From Gammaproteobacteria bacterium (GTDB lineage Bacteria; Pseudomonadota; Gammaproteobacteria; Eutrophobiales; Eutrophobiaceae): a DNA stretch of 64,000 nt. A model generated the notes under the pieces. That model was not told the origin of the DNA, made no database searches, and saw only the letters and a list, made by a program, of their open reading frames with translations. How positions within the stretch are numbered: the stretch's first letter is position 1; each line of letters starts with the position of its first letter. Location of the stretch: NCBI GenBank assembly GCA_021773235.1, contig JAJFKL010000045.1, positions 12,150 to 76,149 on the forward strand. The letters run 5' to 3'. A program made the translations under genes and the position numbers. Of this stretch, positions 1 to 23,847 are shown piece after piece.

Positions 1-66
1 GCCAGCATAAGATACTGCAGGCATACTAGCAATCAAGGCCAATAATATTATAGATTTAACTTTCAT
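1..66 (-). CDS. 5' end (signal peptide) of a secreted/periplasmic protein that continues off the left edge
   Basis: Reverse complement of 1..66 reads MKVKSIILLALIASMPAVSYAG. GGAGGAA Shine-Dalgarno at 75..81. Absent from the ORF track because it is truncated. Confidence 0.4.
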   Translation of the reverse strand, partial: MKVKSIILLALIASMPAVSYAG

Positions 67-96
67 CGTTTTACTTCCTCCACTTTATTAAACAAA

Positions 97-525
97 TTAA
101 TGTTGTAAAAACTTATGCAGTCTTGCATCTTTTGTACTGAAATGATTTACAAACCAGTCTTGCAATCGTTCTCCAAACTCATCTTTATCCAGTGACTCTC
201 TTTCTTCATATTCATCCATTATGTCTCTAATACTATCCAATAGTGCTTCATGATCTTCTTTGTGGTCTTCAAATTGATCATATTTCAATTGTCTCATTTC
301 TTTTTCTTCCAATGCAAAATGTGCTGATATTTGCATGAAAACTTCTCCAAGTGCGTCCAACACAGCCAAGGTGGAACCGTCCTTTTCCGCTTCATTATAT
401 AACTCATTAATTAACTCTATTAATTCCTGATGTTCAAAATCGACTTCTTTTATGCCGATTTTAAAATCATCTCGCCATTCTAATAATGCCATTCTATTAA
501 TCTCACTGAAAATAAAACCCGCCAA
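97..525 (-). CDS. Bacteriohemerythrin (hemerythrin-like metal-binding domain protein)
   Basis: 142 aa. WRDDFKIGIKEVDFEHQELI start and later His/Glu/Asp-containing helices are typical of hemerythrin-like domains. Overlaps the upstream gene by 23 nt (same operon). Confidence 0.85.
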   Translation of the reverse strand: MAGFIFSEINRMALLEWRDDFKIGIKEVDFEHQELIELINELYNEAEKDGSTLAVLDALGEVFMQISAHFALEEKEMRQLKYDQFEDHKEDHEALLDSIRDIMDEYEERESLDKDEFGERLQDWFVNHFSTKDARLHKFLQH

Positions 526-1006
526 GGTCTTTTCTAAAATCTATAACAAAAATTTCTTTAGGTTCAATATTGATTACCGTATCACTCTCATAATCGTAAC
601 CCTCTTCTCGTCCACTATCTCTTAATTTTACAATTAACTGGTGTTCACCTGGTTTGACCGAAATCCTTTCATAGATAGAAGCGGAACCATCTTTAGCTAG
701 ACCGGTAGGGTTGTACGACTTACTTAATAAATTTTCACCATCCAACATAACGTCAACATAAAGAGGTACTCTCTCCCTTGGACAATCCATAGGTCGTCGC
801 ATATTGGGGGCTAATGTATTTAATTCTTCCTGTGTAAACTTACGACATTCTTCTTTGCGTTCACTAGCATGGCTAAAACTAACCATAATCAACGCCATCT
901 CAGAATCGTGATAGGTATAGCTCGGCGAATTCGAGAAATACCCTAGCATTAAACCAAAGAGTATAAACGAAACAATCTGACCAAGCAGCTGACTAAACCT
1001 AAGCAT
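503..1006 (-). CDS. Membrane-anchored hypothetical protein
   Basis: 167 aa. One N-terminal TM helix (IVSFILFGLMLGYF) followed by a soluble domain with no motif I recognise. Overlaps both neighbours (translational coupling). Confidence 0.5.
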   Translation of the reverse strand: MLRFSQLLGQIVSFILFGLMLGYFSNSPSYTYHDSEMALIMVSFSHASERKEECRKFTQEELNTLAPNMRRPMDCPRERVPLYVDVMLDGENLLSKSYNPTGLAKDGSASIYERISVKPGEHQLIVKLRDSGREEGYDYESDTVINIEPKEIFVIDFRKDLGGFYFQ

Positions 1007-2573
1007 CGACTTTCTCGCTACTTTTGTTTATTTTATTCTGGTCTTCGAGCTGTGCGGAATCAAGTTTATTCAAACGCAGGCGAAAAGTTGTTAGCTCTTT
1101 AAAAAATTCTTTTCGCCGAGTCATGCCTGCCCAGTATTTACCGATTCGATCCTGGTTTACCCGTTTGCGTATACGGGGATCACGTTGCCCAGCTAGACGC
1201 GCATCAGTCCATTTTATCCCTAGGCGGTAACTGCAGTCACCTTCACGACATCCTGTAAGAAAGACCCCATCAGCCAGTTTTTTCGATAATACAAAATCAA
1301 TAAATGAAGGTGGCAACATACCAATACAAGGCATGGTGACCACACCTACACTTGTATCTGATACTTCCACAGGATTGAGACTGTTATCACAACCGTAAAC
1401 AATAACCCGATCAGTCCCGGTAAGATTACGCGATGCACTAATCGTTTTATTTCTCAATATTTTGATCTTATCCTCCGGTAATTCTATTCCCGGAGATAAT
1501 TCAGACTTCGTTCTAAAGGGTGTCGCCGTTGGACATGAGCCGACACAAATACCACAACTAACACAATGACTGGCATCAACAACAGCTTCCATTTTATAAG
1601 CACTACCATCGCTACGTGGTTCCATATCGATCGCACTAAAAGGGCAGTCCGCAGCACAACGACTACAACCATTGCAATTATCAAGGTGTACGACCGCGAC
1701 TTCAGCACGCTTACCCGGTGGCATCCATGGCACCATCATTAACAACAATGTCGCGCCGATAAGTGCTATCCAGACAGTTAAGCCGGAGACATTATTCATG
1801 ATGGGATAGATTGGCATATAAAACCAATCCAGATTGACTGTGGTGGGAACGATACTTAAATCAGCAGGCGCCTGACTCAACGCTGGTTTTATAAAAGAGA
1901 GTATCAATAGCATGCTAAGTGTCGCTATAGCGAGTTCCTTAGGTGGATTAACTTTGGGCGTAGCATGCCTTTGAATGTGTATCCACATAACAAATAACAA
2001 AATTAGCGGTATAGCAATATGCATGAACACCATCAGCGTGAAAAAACGCCCACTCAATTTGGCATCAGTAAGAAAATTACGCGCGATCGCTTCACCAAAT
2101 ATTGGAACCGCATCTAAAAATTCAGCCGTGGTAATAGCAATATATTGAGCAAGCTGATCCCAAACCATCCAGTAACCGGAAATACCCGCGGTAAATACTA
2201 ACCAGAGCATAGGTATTCCAGTAAACCAGGCAAACCAACGCGAACTTCGGAATCGATCCATGGCGAACTCACGCAACAAGTGCACCATCATCATCACAAC
2301 TAAAGCGTCTGATGCATAGCGATGCAAACTACGCATGATACCGCCGGCATACCATTGTTCATGCGTCAGGTATTCCAAGGACTTATACGCCTGGCTAACA
2401 CCCGTGTCGAAGAATATGTATAGGTAGAGTCCACTAACAACAACGATCCAGTAATAAAACCAACCCAATGCACCCAATTGATAAAAAGGATTCCATTTAG
2501 CGCCAAAAAGAGCATCGAACGAATCTTCAAGATGCTCAAAACATATTCTCAATAACTTCTTTAATACTTCCAC
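999..2573 (-). CDS. Fusion protein: di-haem cytochrome b N-terminal domain + 2x[4Fe-4S] ferredoxin + MvhD/FlpD-like iron-sulfur domain
   Basis: 524 aa. Four His in TM helices (SLHRYASD, MMVHLL, FMHIAIP, MWIHIQRH). Two ferredoxin motifs: CNGCSRCAADCP and CVSCGICVGSCP. C-terminal YGCDNS...PCIGMLPP...GCREGDCSY is typical of the hydrogenase iron-sulfur subunit (MvhD-type) domain. Confidence 0.8.
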   Translation of the reverse strand: MEVLKKLLRICFEHLEDSFDALFGAKWNPFYQLGALGWFYYWIVVVSGLYLYIFFDTGVSQAYKSLEYLTHEQWYAGGIMRSLHRYASDALVVMMMVHLLREFAMDRFRSSRWFAWFTGIPMLWLVFTAGISGYWMVWDQLAQYIAITTAEFLDAVPIFGEAIARNFLTDAKLSGRFFTLMVFMHIAIPLILLFVMWIHIQRHATPKVNPPKELAIATLSMLLILSFIKPALSQAPADLSIVPTTVNLDWFYMPIYPIMNNVSGLTVWIALIGATLLLMMVPWMPPGKRAEVAVVHLDNCNGCSRCAADCPFSAIDMEPRSDGSAYKMEAVVDASHCVSCGICVGSCPTATPFRTKSELSPGIELPEDKIKILRNKTISASRNLTGTDRVIVYGCDNSLNPVEVSDTSVGVVTMPCIGMLPPSFIDFVLSKKLADGVFLTGCREGDCSYRLGIKWTDARLAGQRDPRIRKRVNQDRIGKYWAGMTRRKEFFKELTTFRLRLNKLDSAQLEDQNKINKSSEKVDA

Positions 2574-2576
2574 GTT

Positions 2577-3494
2577 TTACGATGTCCCTGTGATTTTATT
2601 ATTCTGTCGCCATGCTCGCACAATAAATACTGCTATAGCACCTAGAATGAGAATACCCATAGCTATTCCAATAAATATTGAATAATCAAATTCATAACGG
2701 CCACTATGTGGATCATAAATTGTACAAAACAAACGAATATTATTTATCCAACCTTCCACCAGTGTCGATTCAGTGCGGTTACCGAATAGTAATTCTTTTA
2801 ACGGCTCAATCAGTTGTGGAGGTTCATATTTTACACCATAAATTTGCCGATAAACTTTTCCATCCGCATCAAGTAATGTTACCTGTGAAAGATGGTCAAA
2901 ACCTCTGGGTGATTTAAAAAAGATAAATCCCATATCATTACTAAAAGCTTTAATAGTCTCTTTATCAGTACTCAGAAAATCCCAGCCTGAAAAGCTAATA
3001 TTACGCTCACGTGCAAACAAACGCATGCGTTCTGGACTGTCTGCTTCTGTATCAAATCCGATAGTGACAACCGAGAAACTTTCATCGCCTAATGCATCTC
3101 GAGCAACCTCAATGACGTCAGCAAGAGAGTTGGTCAACGTTGGACAGATATGATGACAACTTGTAAAGATCATACTTACAATCAGGGGTTTTCCTCGATA
3201 TTGGGTAATATCGACAGGTTTTTTATCCTGATTAATAAAATTATAACTTTCTATTGTTCTATTTATTGCAGACTGACTAAATTCAAAGGCTTTATCTTTG
3301 TCGTATTGTTTTGCAAGCTGATGACCATCAGTGACCGAATAAGCATTGAGAGAAAAAAGATACAGGAAAACAAAACCAATCTTTTTTAGGGGGTTAATCT
3401 GGTTTGGTTTTTTATAATTTACGCATAGTACTTTAATTAAATAGAGCGACACATGATTCCCACATAATTTAAATAACCAACACATCCAGAACAC
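2577..3494 (-). CDS. senC: SCO1/SenC family copper chaperone with an extra C-terminal TM helix
   Basis: 305 aa. Thioredoxin-fold copper site FTSCHHICPT. Hydrophobic N-terminal anchor and C-terminal TM (IFIGIAMGILILGAIAVFIV). Start uncertain (M1 or M4); overlaps the ctaB end. Confidence 0.8.
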   Translation of the reverse strand: MFWMCWLFKLCGNHVSLYLIKVLCVNYKKPNQINPLKKIGFVFLYLFSLNAYSVTDGHQLAKQYDKDKAFEFSQSAINRTIESYNFINQDKKPVDITQYRGKPLIVSMIFTSCHHICPTLTNSLADVIEVARDALGDESFSVVTIGFDTEADSPERMRLFARERNISFSGWDFLSTDKETIKAFSNDMGFIFFKSPRGFDHLSQVTLLDADGKVYRQIYGVKYEPPQLIEPLKELLFGNRTESTLVEGWINNIRLFCTIYDPHSGRYEFDYSIFIGIAMGILILGAIAVFIVRAWRQNNKITGTS

Positions 3495-4335
3495 ATGCGC
3501 AGAGTAACAACGTCAGCTGTATTAATGAGGCATGGAAATTTTTTCGTGCAATCTCTATTGTTGGTTGACGTACCAAATCAAAACTAGTCTTTAAAAAATA
3601 TAAGCCGCCACTAAGTGCACCCAATAAATATAACCAACCTAGGCCATAAAAATAAGGGAGTATTGAAACCAGTACTAATGCCAACGTATGAGCAAATATA
3701 ATTTTTGCTGCTACCGGCTTTTCAAACACTGCCGGCAACATAGGCACACCAGCTTGCTTGTAATCATTGGCAAATACAAATGCCAGGCTCCAGAAATGAG
3801 GAGGCGTCCAGAGAAACAAGACTATCGCCAATAATATTGGCGCTGGAGATAAGGAAGGGTCAACTACTGCCGCACCACCGAGCACAGCAAAACTACCCGA
3901 TAATCCACCAATGACAATATTTAGCCAAGTTCGTTGTTTTAGCCAAACGGTATAAACAACACCATAGGTGAATGCACCTAGAAAAACATAGAGTGCCGCG
4001 ACTGAGTTGATTGCTATTGAAGTTCCCACCACAGAGATTAGCAACATCAACCCAATAACAGTTAACCAGTATTTATCCGCCTGAAAACGACCTGTTACAA
4101 ACGGTCGATTTCGTGTGCGCTTCATGGTTGCATCTAAATCACGTTCAACAAATTGATTAAATGCACCAGCACTGGCTGATGACATCAGTATGGCTAAACA
4201 AAACAGAAATATCTTCCACGTTTCCGGCAACGGCCCCGGCGTAATTGCGAGACCTGCAAGCCCGGTTATCATTATCGCAAAACCGATCCTGAGCTTACAG
4301 ACTGATACTAACTCTCTAATAACACCGGGCATCAT
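3469..4335 (-). CDS. ctaB: Protohaem IX farnesyltransferase (haem O synthase)
   Basis: 288 aa polytopic protein with the UbiA-family motif NQFVERDLDATMKRTRNRPFVTGR. Confidence 0.9.
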   Translation of the reverse strand: MMPGVIRELVSVCKLRIGFAIMITGLAGLAITPGPLPETWKIFLFCLAILMSSASAGAFNQFVERDLDATMKRTRNRPFVTGRFQADKYWLTVIGLMLLISVVGTSIAINSVAALYVFLGAFTYGVVYTVWLKQRTWLNIVIGGLSGSFAVLGGAAVVDPSLSPAPILLAIVLFLWTPPHFWSLAFVFANDYKQAGVPMLPAVFEKPVAAKIIFAHTLALVLVSILPYFYGLGWLYLLGALSGGLYFLKTSFDLVRQPTIEIARKNFHASLIQLTLLLCACVLDVLVI

Positions 4336-4351
4336 TATGAATGCTCCTGAC

Positions 4352-6046
4352 TTAACGCAGTGGCCAGACTTCTGCTAAGTATTTCCAGTTAACAAAGTAG
4401 TAAAGTACAAAACTCGTAAAAAAGACAACAACCAAAACAATCGTGCCCGGAATCGCAGGATGTTCTTCGTCACCATGCTCGGCAACAACTGCTGCATTTT
4501 CATCGGTAGGTACAGCCGTAGGTGCTTCAGTACTATCAACCTTCTTACCAAAGAATATCGAACCCACTGCAACAGCGATAAACATAGCACCGCCCACCCC
4601 AGCTAAAATTGCACTCATACCATTCAAGCCCATCATCAGATTGGCTGCACCTGGAAAATCATAAGGAAGCACCGCATCAGCCTGAGAAATATCCCAATGG
4701 CGTCTTGGCACACCCAGAGTTCCTGCGCCCATCATGAACACAGAGATACCAGCAACACCCAGTCCGAAGACGTAGGGCTGAAGCTTTGCCATTCCAGGAA
4801 ACATTATCTCTTTTTGAAAAATAAGCGGAATTAATAAATAGGTCACAGCCATAAATGCCAGTGTGGTCCCTGCTACAACGGTCGCATGAAAATGTCCTGG
4901 CACATATATAGTGTTATGAATTATCAGGTTGATTTGCTCAACCCCCATAACAACACCCGATATGCCACCAAGAAAGCCAAACAGTATCAAGGAAACAAAC
5001 ATCCCTGAGAAAGCGGGATTTCCCCATGGGCATTTACGTAGCCATTCAAACAGTCCATTGGTATAGCCTTTACTACGTTGTGCTGCTTCGATCTGTCCTG
5101 GCACAGTCATACCATGAACCATACTTCCGAGTACCGCCAAATAGATGGCATAACTGGTATTAAAGATTTTCCACTCAGAGCTGATACCTGGATCAACTAG
5201 TAAATGATGCGCACTGGCAAGTTGTAGAAACAGTACATAGAGGAGGAAAGCACCGCGACTAACTTTTTCAGACAAGGGTTTTGCACCCAATACCACTGCC
5301 GATATTAAATACCAGATAGAGATATGCGCCGCAACATTGATCTGTTGTGATGAATGTCCAAATGCCCACCATATAGTCCGATACATTAAAGTATCAATAT
5401 GGCTAACATAGCCGATAGACCACAGAAAAGTTGGTATTAGTATGATTGCACCTGATGCAATCGTAAACACAGCAATAATGGCTGCCACCGTTGCACCAAA
5501 GGTTACCAGGGGCACCGAACCTTCATACGTTTTTTCCTGTTTCGCTATTACCAACGTGCCGAAGAAAACAAAGCAACCGATCAAGGCACCCACGGCGAAA
5601 AGTATGACACCTGCGTAAAACGAAGGATCTGCTTTTAATGGCACATAGGATGTAAACATGACACTTGAACCACCCTGTAATACGGCAATATTAGTGACAA
5701 TTGCACCAATCAACATCAAGGCAAAACCAGCCCACGCCCATTTTGGTGTTGCCAGTCGACTCCCTAAAAGTACCGACGAGGCAAAATATAAGACCGCCAT
5801 TTCAAAGAAAATGATCCATACCACCAAGAGATTTATGCCATGTGCGGTAAGCGCAAGATAAAACCAATCTGCAGGTAACAAGTGGACAGCCTTCCAACGC
5901 GTTAATGCCACCATTATCCCAAAGAGTCCACCGACAAGCAGGAAGACTACCGCTACCACGGCGTTTGCCTTAATCAGATTTTCAGCTGATTTATAAACAC
6001 GTAACCCTGTCGTTTGGCATGTTCTGTACTGTTCATTAATTGCCAT
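4352..6046 (-). CDS. Haem-copper oxidase superfamily subunit I, B-family-like, lacking the cross-link tyrosine (candidate NO reductase subunit)
   Basis: 564 aa, about 13 TM. His ligands at TAHGINL (H69), WWAFGHSSQQ (H231), SAHHLL (H280/281) and PGHFHATV (H385/387). Gln sits at H231+4 where HPxVY enzymes have Tyr. Confidence 0.9.
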   Translation of the reverse strand: MAINEQYRTCQTTGLRVYKSAENLIKANAVVAVVFLLVGGLFGIMVALTRWKAVHLLPADWFYLALTAHGINLLVVWIIFFEMAVLYFASSVLLGSRLATPKWAWAGFALMLIGAIVTNIAVLQGGSSVMFTSYVPLKADPSFYAGVILFAVGALIGCFVFFGTLVIAKQEKTYEGSVPLVTFGATVAAIIAVFTIASGAIILIPTFLWSIGYVSHIDTLMYRTIWWAFGHSSQQINVAAHISIWYLISAVVLGAKPLSEKVSRGAFLLYVLFLQLASAHHLLVDPGISSEWKIFNTSYAIYLAVLGSMVHGMTVPGQIEAAQRSKGYTNGLFEWLRKCPWGNPAFSGMFVSLILFGFLGGISGVVMGVEQINLIIHNTIYVPGHFHATVVAGTTLAFMAVTYLLIPLIFQKEIMFPGMAKLQPYVFGLGVAGISVFMMGAGTLGVPRRHWDISQADAVLPYDFPGAANLMMGLNGMSAILAGVGGAMFIAVAVGSIFFGKKVDSTEAPTAVPTDENAAVVAEHGDEEHPAIPGTIVLVVVFFTSFVLYYFVNWKYLAEVWPLR

Positions 6047-6049
6047 TGT

Positions 6050-6595
6050 TTATATCCCCTCGTTATCGACGACATATATCCTGCCGAGCATTGTGTGATG
6101 TCCAATACCACAATATTCATTACAGACGACTCCAAATTCCCCTGTCGTCGTAGGTGTAACTGTGAGCACCATTTCGTAATCAGGATGTATTTGTAAGTTA
6201 ATATTTATCGGCTGCAAAGAAAAACCGTGCATCCAGTCCAAAGAAGATAAGTGAAGTCGATATGACTGACCTTTTTCCAATTCCAGGATTGGCCACCACT
6301 GCCAGAGTCTGGCAATCATATAGACATCTGAACCAGGAGGCGGACGGACAACCGGATAACCGGATTCTTCACGGACTGTATATTTATCCGTCATTGCTTC
6401 AGTTTTTTCAGTGAACTGTTCTGCTGTGATTTTATATGCTTCGTTAGATAAGTTTTGTTCACCATAAGCGTGCCAGTAGATCATCATGAAAAACATAATC
6501 AATCCCCAGACGAAAGCGACGATGACCCAGATAAGCTCGGATTTTGGGACAGAATCATTCCACCAGATCCTGCTTTTTGGAGGGGTAACTGACAT
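6050..6595 (-). CDS. Haem-copper oxidase subunit II with CuA centre
   Basis: 181 aa. N-terminal TM hairpin, cupredoxin domain with HGFSL and the CuA motif CNEYCGIGHHTM. A 3-nt gap separates it from subunit I. Confidence 0.85.
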   Translation of the reverse strand: MSVTPPKSRIWWNDSVPKSELIWVIVAFVWGLIMFFMMIYWHAYGEQNLSNEAYKITAEQFTEKTEAMTDKYTVREESGYPVVRPPPGSDVYMIARLWQWWPILELEKGQSYRLHLSSLDWMHGFSLQPININLQIHPDYEMVLTVTPTTTGEFGVVCNEYCGIGHHTMLGRIYVVDNEGI

Positions 6596-6615
6596 AGTGT
6601 TGTCTCCTTAAATTA

Positions 6616-6792
6616 TTATTTTGCTACAGGGATGGTAATGATTTCCATAATGCCCCAGATAACATAAAAGACAGTTGGAATAGTGACGCCGAGAAAGAGC
6701 AATAGAAAAGGATTATCTATTATCTGTTGCATGACTGGTATTCGTTCAGATTCTGTGTCGCTATCGCTAGACACGCCATTTTCTTCAGACAT
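6616..6792 (-). CDS. Small single-TM protein, first gene of the oxidase operon (possible extra subunit)
   Basis: The track ORF 6616..6843 is trimmed here to the internal ATG at 6792, which has a GGGGG Shine-Dalgarno 4 nt upstream. Acidic N-terminus, then TM FLLLFLGVTIPTVFYVIWGIMEI. Confidence 0.45.
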   Translation of the reverse strand: MSEENGVSSDSDTESERIPVMQQIIDNPFLLLFLGVTIPTVFYVIWGIMEIITIPVAK

Positions 6793-6913
6793 ATCGCCCC
6801 CTAATATATTAAAAGATCGTAGATATACTCTACTTTCATACATTTAATTTGAGTGCGACAATTTGTCCACTCAATTATAGAGAGCCAATCTATGCTGTAT
6901 TTAATCTATATGT

Positions 6914-6927
6914 CTTGACCTAGATCA
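6914..6927 (-). promoter_or_regulatory. FNR/Dnr-type box (TTGAC-CTAG-ATCAA, 9/10) upstream of the oxidase operon
   Basis: Read directly from the sequence. A TAGATT -10-like hexamer lies about 31 bp downstream on the minus strand, which is class II spacing. Confidence 0.55.
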
Positions 6928-6972
6928 AGAAGAATGGTGGAATAATACAACGAACTTATATTTCTAATATAT

Positions 6973-7155
6973 TCAACCACTTAGGGCGCGTATTACAGTA
7001 AAGGAACTCACGGCAAGTATCAAAATAATTACAAAAAAGACTAGACTGCGATACTCAAATTTTCGGCCCGAGGCTTTTTCAATCTGCACCAGTATCCAGT
7101 CTGAACCGAGATAAAGGATAATTCCGGCTAAGGTGTATGCCACTATTTCAGTCAT
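6973..7155 (-). CDS. Small two-TM membrane protein (hypothetical)
   Basis: 60 aa with two hydrophobic helices. AGGAT-like ribosome-binding site upstream. No recognisable motif. Confidence 0.35.
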   Translation of the reverse strand: MTEIVAYTLAGIILYLGSDWILVQIEKASGRKFEYRSLVFFVIILILAVSSFTVIRALSG

Positions 7156-7288
7156 TTGATTTTATCCTGATTCATTGTTTCATAAGGTCATGGTAATAAT
7201 GAATTTGCATTACTCTGTAATTTATTATTTACTCAATTCATAATTTAAAACAACCACTCATTTTAAAATTGTAACGCCTTAATAAACT

Positions 7289-8272
7289 TTGCTTGTATCA
7301 ATCATGCAATTCCTTAAAAGCAATCACTATCCAAAGAAATGTTTTTTTCTTTTGAATTGTAGCGCCTTAATCATGTCGTTACTGATTGTATTTTTAAGCA
7401 CACACATCAGGCTCGGAGAAGCGGGCTTGGGTTGCTCCCCATGGCCTGATTGTTATGCACAGCTCTCTTTTGCTGATGGTCCCAAAGGACTTCAAATACC
7501 GGACTCCGAATTTAAAATATTTCGGTCTATGCATCGCAGCATAGCAAGTATATTGGGTCTTAATATTTTAGTTATCATGTTAATAGCACTTTGGTTTCGC
7601 AAAACAACATCACCGTTATTACCAATATTGATGTTTCTAGTTGTTCTTTTTCTTTCAATATTAGGAATTGCGACACCGACAAGAAGTTTACCCCTTGTTA
7701 CATTGGGAAATATTCTAGGCGGTATAGTTTTGTCAGGTCTTGTATGGAGACAAATCCTGTCGACTAAAGACAGACCGAAAAAATCCGCACCCTTTATTTT
7801 GTTTCTAGTATCTATAACACTGACAGTGCAACTGATCAGTGGTGCCTGGGCAAGTGCAAATTACACGGGATCTGCCTGCCCGAAATTATTATCATGCACC
7901 TATACGAATGACATAACAGGCAACCTGCTCGATAGCTTAAATGTATTACGCAAACTAACACTGGATAGTGATTGCCATCTGATACTGAATGAAACATCCA
8001 GCATTATTCAATTTAACCATAGGCTCATCGCCGTAATATTATTAATAATAATTGTTGTAGCCTTATGGAAAGTAAGACGTGAATACCCCTCTTTACTCAA
8101 ACCATTAATGATTGTCAGTGTTGTTTTCTTTGCTGAGTTTATTCTCGGGGTCGTTAATGTATTAACTGAAATGCCGTTATGGACAAACACACTGCATAAT
8201 TTATTAGCAGTGGGATTATTATTTGCTACGATTAATTTAACGATGCTAATTCATCGCAATAGTGGCCATTAA
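7289..8272 (+). CDS. ctaA: Haem A synthase (COX15/CtaA family)
   Basis: 327 aa, about 8 TM. Cys pair GLGCSPWPDC, a second pair CPKLLSC, and conserved His in SMHRS, FNHRL and LHNLL. Start uncertain (TTG at 7289 or ATG at 7304). Confidence 0.75.
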   Translation: MLVSIMQFLKSNHYPKKCFFLLNCSALIMSLLIVFLSTHIRLGEAGLGCSPWPDCYAQLSFADGPKGLQIPDSEFKIFRSMHRSIASILGLNILVIMLIALWFRKTTSPLLPILMFLVVLFLSILGIATPTRSLPLVTLGNILGGIVLSGLVWRQILSTKDRPKKSAPFILFLVSITLTVQLISGAWASANYTGSACPKLLSCTYTNDITGNLLDSLNVLRKLTLDSDCHLILNETSSIIQFNHRLIAVILLIIIVVALWKVRREYPSLLKPLMIVSVVFFAEFILGVVNVLTEMPLWTNTLHNLLAVGLLFATINLTMLIHRNSGH

Positions 8273-8296: not shown

Positions 8297-8725
8297 ATGA
8301 GTATTGTTTGGAATAATAGAAAAAACTGGGTAAAAAGTGCACACAATACAAAATGGTGCCTGATTGGTTGTTCTATTGGAGATTTTGGTACGATTGCTTA
8401 TTTTCAGTTCAGCGAGCATAGCTTAACAACTATTACCGTTATGCTATTAGCTATGTTAAATGGCCTGTTAACAAGCATCTTACTTGAGACTATTATTTTG
8501 TATCGTTCGAGCTTCAGTTTACGAGATGCATTTATGACTGCTATTGGTATGAGTTTTATCTCCATGTTGGCAATGGAGACCGCAATGAATCTAACAGACT
8601 ATATGTTGACTGGTGGGGCGATATTGACTTGGTGGGTAATCCCCATTGCACTGTTTGTCGGTTTTATAACACCTTGGCCTTATAATTATTGGCGCTTACA
8701 AAGACATGGAAAATCTTGCCATTAA
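8297..8725 (+). CDS. Small 4-TM membrane protein, possibly DUF4396-like
   Basis: 142 aa. WCLIGCSIGDFG motif in the first TM. The family assignment is from memory only. Confidence 0.45.
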   Translation: MSIVWNNRKNWVKSAHNTKWCLIGCSIGDFGTIAYFQFSEHSLTTITVMLLAMLNGLLTSILLETIILYRSSFSLRDAFMTAIGMSFISMLAMETAMNLTDYMLTGGAILTWWVIPIALFVGFITPWPYNYWRLQRHGKSCH

Positions 8726-8811: not shown

Positions 8812-10182
8812 TCAACTTTGTATTTGTTCCGTTGATTTATTTAACATCGCTTTGATCACAATAACAATAAACATAAAACCACCAACCGCAGACAGTAACC
8901 CACCTATTCCCATTACGCCCATTCCGGCAATACGCTCTATTGAATCCAAACCCTGTGCAGCGCCAGCAACTTTTCGTTGAACACCGTATCCCCCAGACCA
9001 GACCAGACCGGCAATATGGAGAAACTGTCCTGAGGCATAGAACCAAAGCTGTATTTTCGAAAGCTTGAAATTAACTTTGATAAAACCCAAGGCGGGTAAT
9101 AATTGATAACAAAGCCCCATCAATGCCAATGAAACACCAACAATACAACCATGGTAATGCGCAGGGATCTTGACGTTATTGCCATCAATCATGAAACCCA
9201 TCATGCCCCCTACTCCGAATAACATTAACGAAGTCAGTAAGGCAGCATACGCTGAAGATCCTTTAGCTGAATCTACTTTCTTTTGAAACAGTGTAAATAA
9301 TATCGCCATACTCAACGGAAATACGGCAAGGCTTCCGCCAAAACTCATCAACATAGTAAATATTTGACGATGAGAAATATCTGTAACGTCATACGCATAG
9401 TAAACAAGTGGTGTCGCAAATATTGAGAGCAAACCAACACCAAACAAAAATAAGGCAACTCTCGGACTTAATGGTAGAGAGAGTCCAGCACTCGATAATA
9501 ACCATAACCAGGCCACCATCATTAACAAAGTATAGGTAAATTGAAGTACGTGTCCCCCACCCCAGAAAAGGAGTTCGTAATAAACTTCACTGACTAATTG
9601 AATAGGCAAACTAATGTATGACCAGACAAAGGCTGCCAGCGCGACAAAAACGCCAATCGCTGCACAATTTAATCCAAATCGAATAACACCTTGACCGCTA
9701 ATCGTTTCCCCAACCTTAGTCATTGCACTCATACTGAATATAACTTGCAATCCGATTCCCGCACCGAAAATAACTAGGCCAACAAGAAAAAGTGAATCAT
9801 CCAACACTGGAATATAATTACTCATTAGTGCATTGGCACTGCCCATAAAAGGTGAAATAGTAATTATCAGGGTTCCTAGAAGTACAACAATAAAACTCAA
9901 TCGAGCAAGCCATGGAAATACAGGACGACTATTTAGGCTCCATAGGACACTCGCAAAAGATAATATCCACACTAAAGAAGACAGGTTGACATGTATAACC
10001 AGAGCTGTGTGGAAGAAATCAACGAATGGAATAAGTTCACCGACTATCGGTGTTCTGGCAAGAACCAACAATACTGAGAAAATTCCTGCCCCAAATAAAG
10101 TAAGTATAGCTAACCAGAACCAGGCAACTGCCAGATCTCTTCTATAATCAGTTGGCACGTCAAGTACATATTTAAAAAACAT
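8812..10182 (-). CDS. Divergent NorB/CcoN-like (haem-copper oxidase subunit I-like) 12-TM protein lacking the HH metal-ligand pair
   Basis: 456 aa. FFHTALVIH (H58/H64), LFWGGGHVLQF (H211) and PAHYHG (H342/H344) match the spacing of NorB/CcoN ligands. There is no HH doublet anywhere, and the expected region reads PLVYYAYDVTDISHR. Confidence 0.7.
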   Translation of the reverse strand: MFFKYVLDVPTDYRRDLAVAWFWLAILTLFGAGIFSVLLVLARTPIVGELIPFVDFFHTALVIHVNLSSLVWILSFASVLWSLNSRPVFPWLARLSFIVVLLGTLIITISPFMGSANALMSNYIPVLDDSLFLVGLVIFGAGIGLQVIFSMSAMTKVGETISGQGVIRFGLNCAAIGVFVALAAFVWSYISLPIQLVSEVYYELLFWGGGHVLQFTYTLLMMVAWLWLLSSAGLSLPLSPRVALFLFGVGLLSIFATPLVYYAYDVTDISHRQIFTMLMSFGGSLAVFPLSMAILFTLFQKKVDSAKGSSAYAALLTSLMLFGVGGMMGFMIDGNNVKIPAHYHGCIVGVSLALMGLCYQLLPALGFIKVNFKLSKIQLWFYASGQFLHIAGLVWSGGYGVQRKVAGAAQGLDSIERIAGMGVMGIGGLLSAVGGFMFIVIVIKAMLNKSTEQIQS

Positions 10183-16605: not shown

Positions 16606-16941
16606 TTAATTGCTTTCTAATATTCCAGTTTTAAGTTGTTTTACCATCCAGCTTACTTCCTGTTTATCAAGAATTCCCTTCCAGGGAGGCATAGGCGTTC
16701 CTTTAACACCATTCATAATGATGCTAGATAATGCCTCGGGAGATTTATCCTTGAGTTTTTCAGGTGTCAGTGAAGTGCCTAAACCACCTTTCAATGTCAT
16801 TCCATGACAGGAACCACAATCATGTTTTATCAAATGTAATAATTCTTGTTGGCGGTCATTGGGTATATCAGTCGCTATAACAGCACAGGGAAAAATCAAC
16901 GTTTGAACAAACAGACTACCTATTAATGTCTTGATGAACAT
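16606..16941 (-). CDS. nirC: Monohaem cytochrome c55X NirC
   Basis: 111 aa. Signal peptide, single CGSCHG motif, and Met in MPPW. Position precedes nirF. Confidence 0.75.
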   Translation of the reverse strand: MFIKTLIGSLFVQTLIFPCAVIATDIPNDRQQELLHLIKHDCGSCHGMTLKGGLGTSLTPEKLKDKSPEALSSIIMNGVKGTPMPPWKGILDKQEVSWMVKQLKTGILESN

Positions 16942-17513
16942 TATTTTCCGGCCATAAGATCGTTATCGATATATTCAACACGCACATATTTTTGCAGGCC
17001 CATCACTCTTGCTTCTCGATCATTTCCGTTTACCGTTATATTCCATACAGCAAGTTGATTTACCCCAGTCGGAATTAAATTTGATTCCTGCATTTGCTTT
17101 AGGACTGCCACAGGATAATTATCGGAAGATGGCTCGCCCAACTTGTCCGAAAGATCCTTGCGAACAGAATCGGAATTCACTAATCCGGGGAAAATTTCAA
17201 TGACTAGTGCAAGACGATCTGAATTTGCCGGGAAGACATAAAGTAAATCAGTGGTTATCCAACTTTGTTTTCGTTTGGCAAAAATCAAATGGTCACCATC
17301 AGTATCTTCACTACTCGAAAAGTCCACACCATCTTTTTCAAAAACAGCACGTACTTCCTCTGCTGACATACCGAAACTAGTGCTGAGATGGCCTTGCAGT
17401 TGTGTTTCTGCAATAACGTTATTAATATTTGTTAGTGCAAATATAAGAAATAAGATCTTTATTAATTTATTAATCATTACTACTAAGCTTTTGCTCTCAA
17501 TTAAATCTATCAA
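16941..17513 (-). CDS. Secreted hypothetical protein embedded in the nir operon
   Basis: 190 aa. Signal peptide (ILFLIFALTNINNVIA) and no recognisable motif. Its stop overlaps the nirC start. Confidence 0.5.
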   Translation of the reverse strand: MIDLIESKSLVVMINKLIKILFLIFALTNINNVIAETQLQGHLSTSFGMSAEEVRAVFEKDGVDFSSSEDTDGDHLIFAKRKQSWITTDLLYVFPANSDRLALVIEIFPGLVNSDSVRKDLSDKLGEPSSDNYPVAVLKQMQESNLIPTGVNQLAVWNITVNGNDREARVMGLQKYVRVEYIDNDLMAGK

Positions 17514-17946: not shown

Positions 17947-19689
17947 TTATTGTTTTACTGCATTGAGTTCAGCTTCGTCATTATCAAAACCTAGTTTATA
18001 ACCTAGAGATACATGATGGTAACGACCATTGGTATAATCATCATGGATTGCAAAACCAAAGTTATATACTTGATCAGTAACCAAACTAACATCACCTGAC
18101 TTATCAGAAACAAGTTTGCGTTTCATCACGATAGTCCAAACACCATCAGACAAACTGGATGTAGACTCTGCACCCTGACCACCTTCCATATAACGTTGTT
18201 CAAGAATGTAGCCATCTTCAGATTTGCCAGTGCCAGCCTGATAACGAATCAGATCCATGAAATGACCTGCTTCCAGTTCAGCTTTGATTTCATCTTCATT
18301 CTTAAGTTTGTCCCAACCACCTAATTTTTTACCGCCACGTCCCTTGAGTTCAATTTTGGTACGACTCTCAGTAATGAACTTACTAATACCTTGTTCAAGA
18401 TTCAGAGCTAAACCACTTGCAGATAAATCGTCTGCGGTCGGCTCAAGAGGCATACCTTTCGCATCAATATGACAAGTCCCCCAGCAACCTGCCCTGTCAG
18501 CGTAAGTAACATCATCAGTTGCTAACATAATGGCAAATTTTATCTGGTTATCAGCATCCATCTTGCCACCATCAACAAAAGGCGCAGGCGTGTGCGCTGT
18601 TTCTGGAAATTGGAAGCGCATATAGAGATTTTCTCCATCATGGGTAGCTCGAACACTAACAGGGATACTGCCTCGTTTATCGGGTATTACTGTATCCGTT
18701 TCTGCCAGATACTCATGCTCTCCGGAAACGATTAGCTCCCCGATATCAACAGTCTCTTCGTCGTGACATTCGAAACAACGATCTCCCGAATTAAAAGCTC
18801 GCTTACCACTATGGTTTTTACCTAAGGTCCATTCCATTGAAGCTTGTCCTGGATAAAAGATATTAATTAATCGTTCAGGTGCCTTTTCCCAATCAACACC
18901 AGATGAGTCCGACGCTGCAGATGCAGGAGCAGCCTCTGTAACTTCTTCAGCGACGGCTGTTTCCTCTTTAGCGACTTCTACTTTTTTAGGTTCTACAGCA
19001 GCTGCTTTTGTTTCTTTTGGTTTTTTGTCTGCATTCATGAACTTATCATAGGCCTCAGGTATAGGGCGTATGAAATCAGGGTTGGGTTTTTCCAGTTCAT
19101 CTTTTTCTTCTTCGGTTAACTGGTCATGTACTTTCTTATGCGCAATACCCTTATGACAATCAATACAGGTCTGGCCTGTTTTCATTGCATTATAATGTTG
19201 TTTACGAGCACGCGGTTTTTGTGCTGCCGGATCCATTGTCGATATTTCATGGCAATTACGACATTCTCTGGAATCGGATGCTTTCATCCGTTTCCACTCA
19301 CTTTTGGCCATGTGTAGACGGTATTTTTCGAACTTTTCTGGCGTATCGATCGTACCCATTACTTTGTGCAATAACTCATTACTCGCCTGTATTTTACGTT
19401 TTATCTTATAAAGCCAGGGACGAGGAACATGACAGTCCGGGCAACCAGCCCTGACACCACTTCGATTTGCATCATGAATCGTACCTTTATATTCCTGATA
19501 CACATTATCTTCCATTTCATGACACGAGATACAAAAATCCATTGTATTCGTTGCTTCCATTCCCGTATTAAAACCGCCCCAAAAAATCACTCCGATAAAC
19601 ATGAAGAAAATGGCAACACCCAAGGTAGTACCAAAAATAATTTTTCGGTTAAGAAAACTGGAAAATATATGATTATCTGGTCGTGTCAT
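17947..19689 (-). CDS. nirT: NapC/NirT-type tetrahaem quinol dehydrogenase fused to a C-terminal haem-binding (EB_dh/DOMON-like) domain
   Basis: 580 aa. N-terminal TM; CISCH, CPDCH, CRNCH and CIDCH motifs. An Ala/Glu/Lys-rich linker is followed by about 310 aa carrying CFECH and CWGTCH, and [16 protein letters not shown]. Confidence 0.85.
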
Positions 19690-21557: not shown

Positions 21558-22874
21558 CTAGAATTTAATCTGTCCCCATATCCATGTCTTGGTGACATCA
21601 GAAGCTCGACTTCCTCCTCGAGCAATATTGGTTGCATTGGTATCGGCATCATAAAATCCAACTTTTGCACCCACGGTGTAGTGTTTTTTAAATGTCTTTA
21701 CCAACAACAAGTCAAGTTCATCTCCATAGTCGTACCCCAAATTATCCGACTCGATCATATGGTAAGAAGCAATAAACTTGGCGCCAAACGCCTTAACCAC
21801 TGCTGTGAAATAAGCATCTTCGATACCGTCACCAGGTGTTGTAAGGAATCTATCTGTCCAACCCTGAAAAGCGTGACCTGTAGCGAGTGGCGTTCTGAAA
21901 GAATTAGTGCCATTGCCTGTGAGCACTTCATAATCGAACTTCAAAACAATTGCCTTAATAAAGTTACCCGGTACATATTTAATACCGACCTCACCAAGAT
22001 AATAATCTTCATCAACGTTAGCAGTATTGTCTCCATAGTCTTCCTGAGTTGCGTATTCGCCGGCATAGAGAAGCTTCAACTTTTCCGAAACGGGATATCC
22101 ACCGCTGATGCGCCCACCATAGGTCTCTGTAGAATTTGCTGTAGAATTCTCAAAGTCTAAAAGGTATGCGTAACCTTCTAGTTTGGCGTAATTAAAGCGA
22201 TCATATTTAAGGTTGATAAAATGCGAATCACTATCGAAATTAGCCCTTGCACTGATAACGGCTTCATCGGTAAAAATACGATTGACGTTCCATGAATAGG
22301 CATAATTAATTGTTGTATACGGCAATGATTTATTTTGGAAAGTAAATGCATCATGATTTTGCCAATTCTGACGCCACAATACAGTACCCATAAAACGGTG
22401 AAACGGTGCATTTCGGTAAGTAATGATCTGGCGTCCCAGTTTAAATGTGCTTCCATTTAAAAACATACCTTCTGTACCGGTATAACTGATGAAACCCTCA
22501 AGCAAGTCTGTTTCTGACGGATCAGCAACCACAGCAAATTGCGTTTTGGCGTTGGAACGTCCGGTTCCATCATTAAAATCATCCTCAAAGACATCACTGA
22601 CATCCTGCCCTAAAATACGTAGACCAAAACCGTGGAAACTGCCGGTGGTATAACCCAAGGTTGTTCTTATAGTAGAGGCATTTGCCTGATCGGTTGCGGC
22701 ATTATCATCCACATGCTCAAAACGATAACGGGCAGAAAAATCGAACTTTCCTCCCTTTATTGCCTCCCAAAGGGGGTCATCACTGCCCTCAGCCAAGACT
22801 GACTGACAAGATAGTGCGACGAAGATAGACACAAGATACTTACTCACGCACTTAAAAGTGCTGAACTTGTTCAT
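21558..22874 (-). CDS. Outer-membrane beta-barrel protein (porin; AlgE/alginate-export-like by recollection)
   Basis: 438 aa. Signal peptide ending VLA-EG. Alternating amphipathic strands, aromatic-rich, and a C-terminal ...WGQIKF typical of OMP termini. Confidence 0.7.
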   Translation of the reverse strand: MNKFSTFKCVSKYLVSIFVALSCQSVLAEGSDDPLWEAIKGGKFDFSARYRFEHVDDNAATDQANASTIRTTLGYTTGSFHGFGLRILGQDVSDVFEDDFNDGTGRSNAKTQFAVVADPSETDLLEGFISYTGTEGMFLNGSTFKLGRQIITYRNAPFHRFMGTVLWRQNWQNHDAFTFQNKSLPYTTINYAYSWNVNRIFTDEAVISARANFDSDSHFINLKYDRFNYAKLEGYAYLLDFENSTANSTETYGGRISGGYPVSEKLKLLYAGEYATQEDYGDNTANVDEDYYLGEVGIKYVPGNFIKAIVLKFDYEVLTGNGTNSFRTPLATGHAFQGWTDRFLTTPGDGIEDAYFTAVVKAFGAKFIASYHMIESDNLGYDYGDELDLLLVKTFKKHYTVGAKVGFYDADTNATNIARGGSRASDVTKTWIWGQIKF

Positions 22875-23265: not shown

Positions 23266-23847
23266 GTGGTCAGAAATCTTATTATGCTTGGCATGGCGAT
23301 CTTGGTCGTGTCGTTAATTGCCCTAATCATTATCGGATTCCTATCTGGTATTTCAAACCCACTGCCGTGGATTTCAATGGCAATTCTTGCAATAGTGATC
23401 TTGACTCATAATAGAATTGTCAAATATAGATACCTGGAATGGAAAGAAAGTTACAGTGTAGGAATTGAGTCGATAGATAATGATCATAAAAAATTAATCC
23501 AATTAATTAATAATTTACAAACAGCAATTGACTATAAAACAAATAATGAATTTGAAAAAAAGACATTAGCTGAAGTCATCGATTATACAAAATACCATTT
23601 CTCCAGAGAAGAAGACCTCATGGAAAATAATGGGTATTCAGATTTCGTAGCGCATAAGGCACAACACGAAAAAATGATAGCGAAGGTGACCGAGCTTGTA
23701 CAAGCCTATGAGAAAGATGAATCAGAAGGTATTAAAGCTGGCGCGATTGAATCATTACTTATGTATCTTAAATCCTGGTTGATCAACCATATTAATGGGA
23801 CCGATCAAGAGTATTCCGAATATCTGATCAGTAAAGGTGTTAAATAA
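23266..23847 (+). CDS. Membrane-anchored bacteriohemerythrin (2 TM + hemerythrin domain)
   Basis: 193 aa. GTG start with AGGAGAGG Shine-Dalgarno. Two N-terminal TM helices, then WKESYSVGIESIDNDHKKLIQLIN, a hemerythrin-like domain. Confidence 0.8.
   Translation: MVRNLIMLGMAILVVSLIALIIIGFLSGISNPLPWISMAILAIVILTHNRIVKYRYLEWKESYSVGIESIDNDHKKLIQLINNLQTAIDYKTNNEFEKKTLAEVIDYTKYHFSREEDLMENNGYSDFVAHKAQHEKMIAKVTELVQAYEKDESEGIKAGAIESLLMYLKSWLINHINGTDQEYSEYLISKGVK

Follow-up and report, generated by a model that had tools for sequence, protein, structure and literature searches.

The 64,000-nucleotide stretch of gammaproteobacterial DNA analyzed here (GenBank assembly GCA_021773235.1, contig JAJFKL010000045.1, positions 12,150 to 76,149 of the forward strand; hereafter the window) encodes on its minus strand a 524-residue protein, named FUS, in which a cytochrome b, two [4Fe-4S] ferredoxin motifs and an MvhD-like domain are joined in a single chain; the next gene encodes a 167-residue protein, p167. 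Together, FUS and p167 constitute a seven-helix cytochrome b resembling cytochrome b6 plus subunit IV, with the iron-sulfur (FeS)/MvhD part inserted in the cytoplasmic loop after helix F and with a β-sandwich as the periplasmic C-terminal domain. Their genes recur beside those of predicted eNOR-type nitric oxide (NO) reductases, and the unit is one of the electron-transfer modules in which a Rieske-less cytochrome b is attached to a terminal reductase. The reading that we favor, tentatively and at less than even confidence, is that FUS and p167 together make up a cytochrome b complex without a Rieske protein, dedicated to eNOR-type enzymes and acting as a transmembrane electron wire.

The segments of FUS and its partner module are the following, with the evidence in brackets.

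999..2573, minus strand: FUS, cytochrome b / 2x[4Fe-4S] / MvhD-like fusion of 524 amino acids (open reading frame with a GTG start, Pfam and NCBIfam, homologues, AlphaFold2)
1974..2495, minus strand: helices A-D, cytochrome b6-like, residues 27-200, heme ligands H84, H98, H185 and H199 (Pfam PF00033, PDB cytochrome b6)
1725..1940, minus strand: helices E-F, residues 212-283, periplasmic ef loop with LDWFY (weak ExtQ match over residues 216-294, Foldseek)
1521..1697, minus strand: predicted cytoplasmic dicluster ferredoxin domain, residues 293-351, two CxxCxxCxxxCP motifs (Pfam Fer4_7/Fer4)
1056..1412, minus strand: MvhD/FlpD-like domain, residues 388-506, with C395, C416, C442 and C447 as a putative [2Fe-2S] site (Pfam FlpD, MvhD chains)
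503..1006, minus strand: p167, N-terminal transmembrane helix and predicted periplasmic eight-strand β-sandwich, partner module of FUS (8-nt overlap with FUS, synteny, natural fusions, AlphaFold2)

Architecture of FUS and p167

Regarding the gene itself, FUS starts three nucleotides after the stop of senC (TAA-AAC-GTG) and opens with GTG-GAA-GTA (M-E-V), and the eight nucleotides ATGCTTAG are common to its stop and to the ATG of the p167 gene. Both junctions had been described in an earlier note on this DNA, made from the sequence alone, and its four domain calls (cytochrome b, further transmembrane helices, two ferredoxin motifs and MvhD/FlpD) likewise agree with Pfam, NCBIfam and the PDB. 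Cytochrome_B (PF00033) covers residues 27-200 with an E-value of 2.8e-20 and 73.4 bits against a cut-off of 27.2, and the PDB sequence search with the core returned cytochrome b6 at E 3e-19. The His pairs H84/H98 and H185/H199 are each 14 residues apart, on helices B and D, in the positions of the bL and bH heme ligands, and they are invariant in 85 sequences. The LDWFY motif of the ef loop is the counterpart of PEWY in the bc1 and b6f complexes, with D249, F251 and Y252 invariant across all the architectural variants, and the cd-region motif GYW.VWD (G-Y-x-x-x-W-D) is conserved in FUS relatives. Within NCBIfam, the best match of the cytochrome b core was ExtP (E 3e-30), and helices E-F matched ExtQ (E 8e-6).

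As for the part that follows helix F, the Fer4_7 match (PF12838, dicluster ferredoxin) spans residues 299-350; residue conservation was scored over FUS relatives of 25-85% identity, in which all eight ferredoxin Cys, C300, C303, C306 and C310 (with P311 next) and C337, C340, C343 and C347, are invariant. FlpD (PF02662) covers residues 407-504 with 44.8 bits against a gathering cut-off of 22.3, over model positions 26-122 of 123, and the MvhD chains 9sw2_D and 5odc_D match FUS at E 1e-7 in the PDB sequence search. C395, C416 and C442 are kept in at least 90% of the relatives, and C447 is invariant among ten sequences aligned; three of these four Cys align to Cys of MvhD, and the N-terminal ligand region of MvhD is unaligned. 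Taken as one segment, residues 292-508 align in NCBIfam with the ferredoxin-MvhD C-terminus of HdrA2 (571-775; E 8e-18).

FUS is a genuine single polypeptide, as the earlier note had described it: more than 100 full-length homologues of like length come from independent NCBI, JGI, ENA and Logan assemblies, the family counts 531 clusters (50% identity) at E<1e-30, and its architecture holds down to 25% identity. An assembly or annotation artefact joining separate genes is practically ruled out by these homologues, by the conserved architecture and by the one confident AlphaFold2 model given below; the uncommon architecture was the sole ground for suspecting one, and nothing spoke in its favor. 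Neither Pfam nor NCBIfam holds a whole-length model for FUS or for p167, and the database labels for FUS are "hydrogenase iron-sulfur subunit", "cytochrome b N-terminal domain-containing protein" and "ferredoxin".

p167 is made of a single N-terminal helix and a 145-residue domain, and it is part of the same unit as FUS. Many family representatives have ~690-720 residues, the extra C-terminus being homologous to p167; among 150 representatives, about 60 are fused cytochrome b-Fer4-MvhD-p167 proteins, and 49 are without a detected p167 module in the same polypeptide. The two proteins are fused in the majority of distant relatives, and in the closer loci (at least 50% identity, n = 83) their genes mostly overlap by 8 or 4 nt and form a single open reading frame in about ten. 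FUS is not, then, the self-contained unit that it had been taken for, p167 being a module of the same protein.

The side of the membrane on which each domain lies, which the earlier note had left to a topology prediction, was read from hydropathy and charge: the ef loop has no Lys or Arg and is placed outside, and the D-E loop and the stretch past helix F are basic. From the positive-inside rule and homology, the FeS and MvhD domains would be cytoplasmic, and the MvhD module would bind a [2Fe-2S] cluster. The C-terminus on the p167 side is assigned to the periplasm because in two variants, P0239 and P0225, the p167-like domain is followed by a terminal CxxCH cytochrome c, and p167 probably adds the next helix (inside to outside) and the periplasmic β-sandwich. 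Such a C-terminal CxxCH domain is limited to these rare variants, and the operon of the window has no cytochrome c1/f subunit.

The structure was modeled with AlphaFold2 on a chimera of the FUS and p167 of the window, aligned with 84 natural relatives, natural fusions included. All domains fell in one confident model, with a mean pLDDT of 95.3 and a pTM of 0.92, and p167 alone had a pLDDT of 95.1. The top Foldseek matches of the joint model were cytochrome b chains of bc1 complexes, over ~284 columns, with a TM score (target) of 0.55-0.59 and E 4e-8. With p167, Foldseek found nothing significant among the PDB folds, only generic Ig/CBM-type sandwiches at E of at least 1e-3, and Pfam was blank for five p167-type sequences even at E<=10, FixG_C included; on these grounds, a cupredoxin, a Rieske, a PCuAC or a FixG_C-like protein was rejected. 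The conserved residues of p167 are H46, C54, M69, C75 and H122, with its two Cys kept in only ~75-80% of the sequences.

Linkage to eNOR and exchange of modules

The earlier note had placed FUS in the operon of a heme-copper oxidase; the placement stands and the name of the enzyme changes, its motifs being those of an eNOR-type NO reductase. The other genes of the operon, and the two that follow upstream, are listed below.

97..492, minus strand: bacteriohemerythrin, probably 131 amino acids from the ATG at 492; the open reading frame extends to a TTG at 525 (NCBIfam bact_hemeryth)
2577..3494, minus strand: SenC/Sco1 copper chaperone with a CHHIC motif, directly upstream of FUS (Pfam SCO1-SenC)
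3469..4335, minus strand: heme O synthase, CtaB/CyoE (TIGR01473, 261 bits against a cut-off of 210)
4352..6046, minus strand: predicted eNOR subunit I, heme-copper oxidoreductase with GHSSQQ (Pfam COX1, alignment to T. thermophilus ba3)
6050..6595, minus strand: predicted eNOR subunit II, 181 amino acids, CuA motif CNEYCGIGHHTM (NCBIfam CoxB-type matches, motif read)
6616..6843, minus strand: s75, small one-helix membrane protein, 5' of subunit II (tblastn synteny, homologue in Turneriella)
6973..7155, minus strand: s60, small two-helix membrane protein, often heading the operon (tblastn synteny, hydropathy)
7289..8272, plus strand: heme A synthase, CtaA/COX15, divergent (Pfam PF02628)
8812..10182, minus strand: HCO2, degenerate COX1-like protein of 456 amino acids without the CuB His-His pair (Pfam COX1, 63.6 bits; motif alignment)

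In subunit I, GHSSQQ aligns with GHPIVY of T. thermophilus ba3, so that Gln replaces the cross-link Tyr; the three active-site His and the three heme His are kept (AHH and GHFH are present). This replacement is diagnostic of eNOR (PMC8756737), an enzyme with heme A(s) at both sites and often with CtaA in its operons (PMC11214002), and the enzyme of the window can be assigned from its sequence to the eNOR-type NO reductases, which derive from the B family. NO reductase activity has been demonstrated for the R. marinus eNOR alone (PMC11214002). The sNOR of the norSY-senC-orf1 cluster of ammonia oxidizers was also considered and rejected: sNOR and bNOR have Asn in the place of the cross-link Tyr (PMC3475470), not the Gln of the window, and the sNOR "orf1/cbaD" is a six-helix protein of ~190 residues.

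The linkage was surveyed in 80 genome loci selected through FUS from Gamma-, Alpha- and Betaproteobacteria metagenome-assembled genomes (MAGs), with counts made only over loci with enough flank. The gene order that recurs is eNOR II-I-(heme O synthase)-SenC-FUS-p167-hemerythrin: eNOR subunit I is present in all 64 testable loci, each time with the Gln signature, and subunit II in 60 of 61; SenC lies directly 5' of FUS in 76 of 77 loci, and p167 was found in equally many (76/77); heme O synthase occurs in 47 of 72, and a hemerythrin stands downstream of p167, on the same strand, in 67 of 75. The neighborhood survey that had been proposed earlier for the homologues thus returned a conserved linkage. 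One locus of a complete genome (CP070821.1) was rejected as an example of a locus without reductase, since a 141-residue piece from the C-terminal end of eNOR subunit I remains at 7733-8140, upstream of heme O synthase-SenC-FUS-p167-hemerythrin; the locus is decayed or rearranged.

The reverse sample consisted of 44 metagenome eNOR loci picked via subunit I, each with at least 3.5 kb downstream, and FUS was present in 39 of them; FUS is frequent at eNOR loci and not obligatory in cis. At one FUS-less eNOR locus (L097, 3638-10911), the genes that come next encode a NirK-like multicopper protein that has a cupredoxin as its tail, two diheme proteins of the CCP/MauG type, and a pair of Rieske and molybdopterin proteins resembling arsenite oxidase. 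Distant fused forms (29-38% identity) adjoin eNOR in an uncultured MAG and in Turneriella parva, where the cluster runs on into NirK, NnrS and two hemerythrins, and one further distant fused form adjoins heme O synthase, SenC and an HCO2-type protein. The carriers of the system include chemolithoautotroph-like MAGs (Sulfuricaulis, Woeseiaceae) and heterotroph lineages (Bradyrhizobium MAGs, Turneriella).

The cytoplasmic module of the cytochrome b core is exchangeable, and it occurs in FeS/MvhD, FNR-like and CPR-like forms. Variants whose helices A-F are 38-52% identical to those of FUS have another module where FUS has its FeS/MvhD part, with an identical insertion point past helix F, either Fer2+FAD+NAD or flavodoxin+FAD+NADPH (cores 46-52% identical); in P0266, the core is without a cytoplasmic module and is fused to an HCO2-type C-terminal half, 50% identical to the window protein at 8812-10182. 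The FNR-type variant is encoded 3' of SenC and 5' of a p167 homologue, and the arrangement SenC, FNR-type, p167, FUS, HCO2 also occurs; the CPR-type variant comes after PCuAC-CtaG-SenC, in a cluster that also has eNOR, FUS, p167 and HCO2. Finally, the cytochrome c-tailed variant (L093/L094) is encoded with a genuine oxidase of the B family (GHPLVY, Tyr present), the operon order being subunit II-subunit I-FUS. Because this variant pairs with a B-family oxygen reductase, the cytochrome b family is not restricted to eNOR; it is dedicated to eNOR, B-family and HCO2 clusters. The same two loci also hold two SenC copies and a PCuAC.

Among the other products of the operon, the hemerythrin scores 98.8 bits with profile NF033749 (cut-off 84), and its diiron ligand set is complete (H32, H69, E73, H88, H92, H129 and D134). 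Its overlap with p167, as claimed in the earlier note, is probably not real, because it needs the TTG start at 525, the homologues align from residue 12 and the ATG sits 10 nt past the p167 stop. The SenC reading frame has 305 residues, against 262-295 in homologues, and shares 26 nt with the heme O synthase gene; the true start is probably further downstream. SenC has a C-terminal transmembrane helix at residues 273-291. The small proteins s75 and s60, kept upstream of eNOR subunit II in most loci (with an s75 homologue even in Turneriella parva), probably belong to eNOR as small subunits. From s60 to the hemerythrin, no Rieske gene is present among the window reading frames and their Pfam matches.

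HCO2, which recurs near FUS in many loci, retains the three heme His, has LVYY where eNOR has AHHL, and carries Phe in the position of the cross-link Tyr; from these motifs, it looks like a heme-only, degenerate member of the heme-copper family. A DUF4396 membrane protein of 142 residues with a Cys-His end (8297-8725, plus strand) is encoded beside CtaA, between the eNOR operon and HCO2.

The eNOR operon sits in a nirS island: farther upstream, and on the same strand, are the genes for NirN, NirJ, NirDLGH, NirF, NirC, a cupredoxin, a NirT-type protein, NirS, CysG and a Crp/Dnr regulator. Directly 3' of nirS (17947-19689, minus strand) is a 580-residue fusion of a NapC/NirT tetraheme quinol dehydrogenase with EB_dh, an ethylbenzene-dehydrogenase-like domain. 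A second hemerythrin-domain protein, of 193 residues with an N-terminal extension, is encoded at 23266-23847 (plus strand), between cysG and an unannotated reading frame of 438 residues; the latter (21558-22874, minus strand) and one of 190 residues (16941-17513, minus strand) are two nir-cluster reading frames without a Pfam match. A promoter and terminator scan of window positions 1-7600 gave fewer sites than shuffled controls and was uninformative.

Possible roles of FUS and p167

The presence of FUS in such an operon had no textbook explanation at the time of the earlier note, and this is still true; the two options named there, a supply of electrons to the heme-copper enzyme or joint action with the hemerythrin, are both still leading candidates. 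For the electron wire, we infer a direction, a donor and a role for the hemerythrin as follows. A cytoplasmic donor would reduce the exposed MvhD [2Fe-2S] cluster, from which electrons would pass over the two [4Fe-4S] clusters to heme bH and heme bL, and they would leave on the periplasmic side toward the CuA/heme centers of eNOR; the Qo-like pocket (DWFY) may also exchange electrons with the quinone pool, as a possible second entry for quinol. The co-translated cytoplasmic hemerythrin would most likely be an O2/NO-binding accessory, or else a second redox partner of the MvhD cluster.

A flow from the cytoplasm to the hemes is favored because NAD(P)H-flavin modules replace the FeS/MvhD part in relatives, in the same slot after SenC, and because the Fer4-MvhD pair is homologous to the input wire of HdrA2. 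Modules of the Fer2+FAD+NAD and flavodoxin+FAD+NADPH types are NAD(P)H-oxidizing reductases, and in the Mvh-Hdr structure, the Fer4-MvhD pair is the wire by which electrons come in from another protein. The membrane potential likewise favors an outward flow of electrons. By the first two arguments, the quinol-to-FeS direction advanced in the earlier note is not the preferred one. Physical association is suggested by FUS and p167 occurring both fused and split, and by the fusion of the core to HCO2 in P0266, which would support the wire. On the output side, the wire is backed by the cytochrome c-tailed variant, which is encoded with a B-family oxidase and resembles QcrC.

Several observations weigh against this reading. 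The operon encodes no donor for the MvhD cluster, its sole soluble cytoplasmic product being the hemerythrin, which is not an electron donor, and p167 has no cofactor motif and no cupredoxin, Rieske or cytochrome fold, which leaves the periplasmic exit route undefined. The window already has conventional periplasmic donors, namely the NirT-type quinol dehydrogenase, the cupredoxin and NirC, and the purified R. marinus eNOR works with artificial donors (PMC11214002). Five of the 44 eNOR loci picked via subunit I are without FUS in cis, and they encode true eNORs with unrelated genes downstream. Moreover, FUS always lies among or beside maturation genes (CtaB, SenC, CtaA, PCuAC), to which an assembly role fits equally well, and the wire leaves both the hemerythrin and the constant SenC adjacency unexplained.

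An assembly role would make FUS and p167 a maturation reductase, providing reducing power for the assembly of the eNOR cofactors and not for turnover; the targets would be Cu(II)/Fe(III) for SenC, PCuAC or a non-heme metal site, or the electrons would go to heme A synthase. We consider this improbable, at a weight that still calls for attention. It has parallels in CcoG and PepSY_TM/CrpH, for cbb3 and other oxidases, and in the ferredoxin Yah1 for Cox15, and the NAD(P)H-flavin plus diheme b variants share the logic of NOX/FRE-type metalloreductases. FUS follows or adjoins SenC (76/77) and often CtaB, CtaA, PCuAC and CtaG, diheme or FeS membrane reductases backing heme-copper enzymes have a precedent (PMC13038864), and eNOR works in vitro without FUS. 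However, the fusion of the core with HCO2, a catalytic-type subunit, and the cytochrome c-tailed variant in its minimal II-I-FUS operon look like electron transfer during turnover; moreover, p167 matches neither FixG_C nor another chaperone family, and its two Cys are kept in only three-quarters to four-fifths of the sequences.

The hemerythrin finds a place in a quinol-driven loop ending in the cytoplasm, in the manner of NarI/NarH, which we hold to be rather unlikely: quinol at the DWFY site would deliver electrons over bL, bH, the FeS clusters and the MvhD domain to the hemerythrin, keeping it in the O2-binding diferrous state (e.g., with O2 for heme A synthase at low O2), or allowing the reduction of O2, H2O2 or NO in the cytoplasm. 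The Qo-type motifs are conserved (GYW.VWD in the cd region, D249-W-F-Y), a complete bacteriohemerythrin is encoded directly 3', after a gap of ~10 nt, in the 67 of 75 loci counted above, quinol is the only obvious electron source for the P0266 core, which has no cytoplasmic module, and the heme A of eNOR is O2-dependent, with CtaA nearby. Still, electrons moving from the periplasm to the cytoplasm would oppose the membrane potential, an accepting role hardly suits the NAD(P)H-flavin variants of the core, and the hemerythrin is absent or distant in the Turneriella locus, in the FNR-type loci and in the cytochrome c-type loci.

The same pocket would allow a Rieske-less, Qo-type bifurcation in a supercomplex of eNOR, FUS and p167, with one quinol electron going to a very high-potential eNOR branch and the other passing over bL, bH and the FeS/MvhD relay until it reduces NAD(P)+ or ferredoxin, as a low-potential acceptor in the cytoplasm. 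If true, NO respiration would directly generate a strong reductant, and this would be a new mode of quinone-based bifurcation without a Rieske centre. The idea has already been proposed for related genes of Ferrigenium (bioRxiv 10.64898/2026.01.22.701106). The conserved Qo-like pocket, together with a cytoplasmic relay of the low-potential type, the existence of FNR-type variants and the many chemolithoautotroph-like MAGs among the carriers (Sulfuricaulis, Woeseiaceae) speak for it; nonetheless, it is very unlikely. There is no Rieske or other identified high-potential acceptor at the pocket, the second electron must go against the membrane potential to about -320 mV, which is thermodynamically demanding, and the system is also found in heterotroph lineages (Bradyrhizobium MAGs, Turneriella). 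Moreover, CPR-type diflavin modules are not known to operate in reverse, which counts against bifurcation as well.

In the eNOR literature examined, FUS is unmentioned except for the cytochrome b-[Fe-S] genes of the 2026 Ferrigenium preprint; literature on MvhD/FlpD together with cytochrome b and heme-copper enzymes gave only an incidental entry, RME88945.1, listed without comment as cytochrome b6/DMSOR-beta/FlpD in a table of a Chloroflexi study (PMC8756737). New here are the breadth of the eNOR linkage, p167 as a module of the unit, the assignment of the MvhD domain and the range of modules exchanged on the core.

In conclusion, eNOR is reportedly among the NO reductase families with the widest distribution in nature (PMC11214002) and thus a relevant source of the greenhouse gas N2O, and ~90% of the eNOR operons sampled encode a seven-helix protein predicted to carry two hemes and three FeS clusters. 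The implication is that cytoplasm, membrane and NO reductase have a dedicated redox connection, one that is missing from current denitrification schemes. The FUS, p167 and hemerythrin genes are testable targets, with Turneriella parva as a cultured carrier, and the FUS signature can serve as a marker for complete eNOR systems in metagenomes, where it now goes under the labels "hydrogenase iron-sulfur subunit" or "cytochrome b N-terminal domain-containing protein".

Comparison with known systems

With the C-terminus of HdrA2 and with the MvhD of Mvh-Hdr, FUS shares a di-[4Fe-4S] domain followed by FlpD/MvhD with conserved Cys. It differs in that the pair is joined to a membrane cytochrome b, in denitrifying Proteobacteria, and that the N-terminal CxxC part of the FlpD model is unmatched; furthermore, no Hdr, hydrogenase or flavin partner was seen at FUS loci in the neighborhoods with called genes and Pfam labels, the tblastn surveys having used window proteins only and being blind to such genes. 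The Geobacter ExtP/ExtQ proteins (Cbc-type), the best NCBIfam match of the core, are likewise Rieske-less b-type modules of anaerobic respiratory clusters; FUS, however, is far under the equivalog cut-off (105 against 290 bits), and in the Ext proteins, which come as separate chains, both the FeS/MvhD insertion and a heme-copper partner are missing.

In NOX/FRE flavocytochromes b and MsrQ-type diheme wires, two stacked b hemes, fed from a reductase module in the cytoplasm, carry electrons to the outer face, and this module logic is exactly that of the variants P0158 and P0161; the membrane domains, however, are not known to be homologous, the FUS family having a cytochrome b of the bc1/b6f type. 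CcoG/FixG, also a membrane protein encoded alongside a heme-copper enzyme, combines two cytoplasmic [4Fe-4S] motifs with an Ig-like domain at its C-terminus, and it is not known to carry hemes. The cupric-reductase role of CcoG in the assembly of cbb3 oxidase is mentioned in PMC13038864. Homology of p167 or FUS to CcoG/FixG is not supported by the sequences, p167 having no FixG_C match at E<=10.

The nearest likeness in gene content is the eNOR operon of Ferrigenium straubiae, which comprises eNOR II, eNOR I, heme o synthase, sco1, a protein of unknown function and cytochrome b-FeS genes, with products found in a proteome (bioRxiv 10.64898/2026.01.22.701106). As given there, the arrangement matches the order FNR-type, p167, FUS of L142, L153 and L174. 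The preprint calls the two cytochrome b-[Fe-S] genes "rather unusual" and possible lineage markers, and proposes a quinol:NAD+ oxidoreductase (bioRxiv 10.64898/2026.01.22.701106); the text searched treats the genes as unusual, not as widespread, and makes no mention of an MvhD domain, a p167 fusion or a hemerythrin.

Finally, in b6f (cytochrome b6 plus subunit IV) and in Bacillus QcrB/QcrC are found the four-His diheme core, the A-F fold and the cd-region motif that FUS also has, the PEWY motif, of which FUS has a putative counterpart, as well as a further helix followed by a periplasmic C-terminal domain, which is a cytochrome c in QcrC and in P0239/P0225. The FUS locus differs by its lack of a Rieske protein, by DWFY in place of PEWY and by Q32 in the position of the heme cn Cys; in addition, 230 residues of cytoplasmic FeS/MvhD insertion separate helix F from the next helix, and the periplasmic domain is a cofactor-less β-sandwich. 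The cytochrome c-tailed variant of FUS, for its part, resembles the Bacillus QcrC cytochrome c, which feeds a CuA oxidase.

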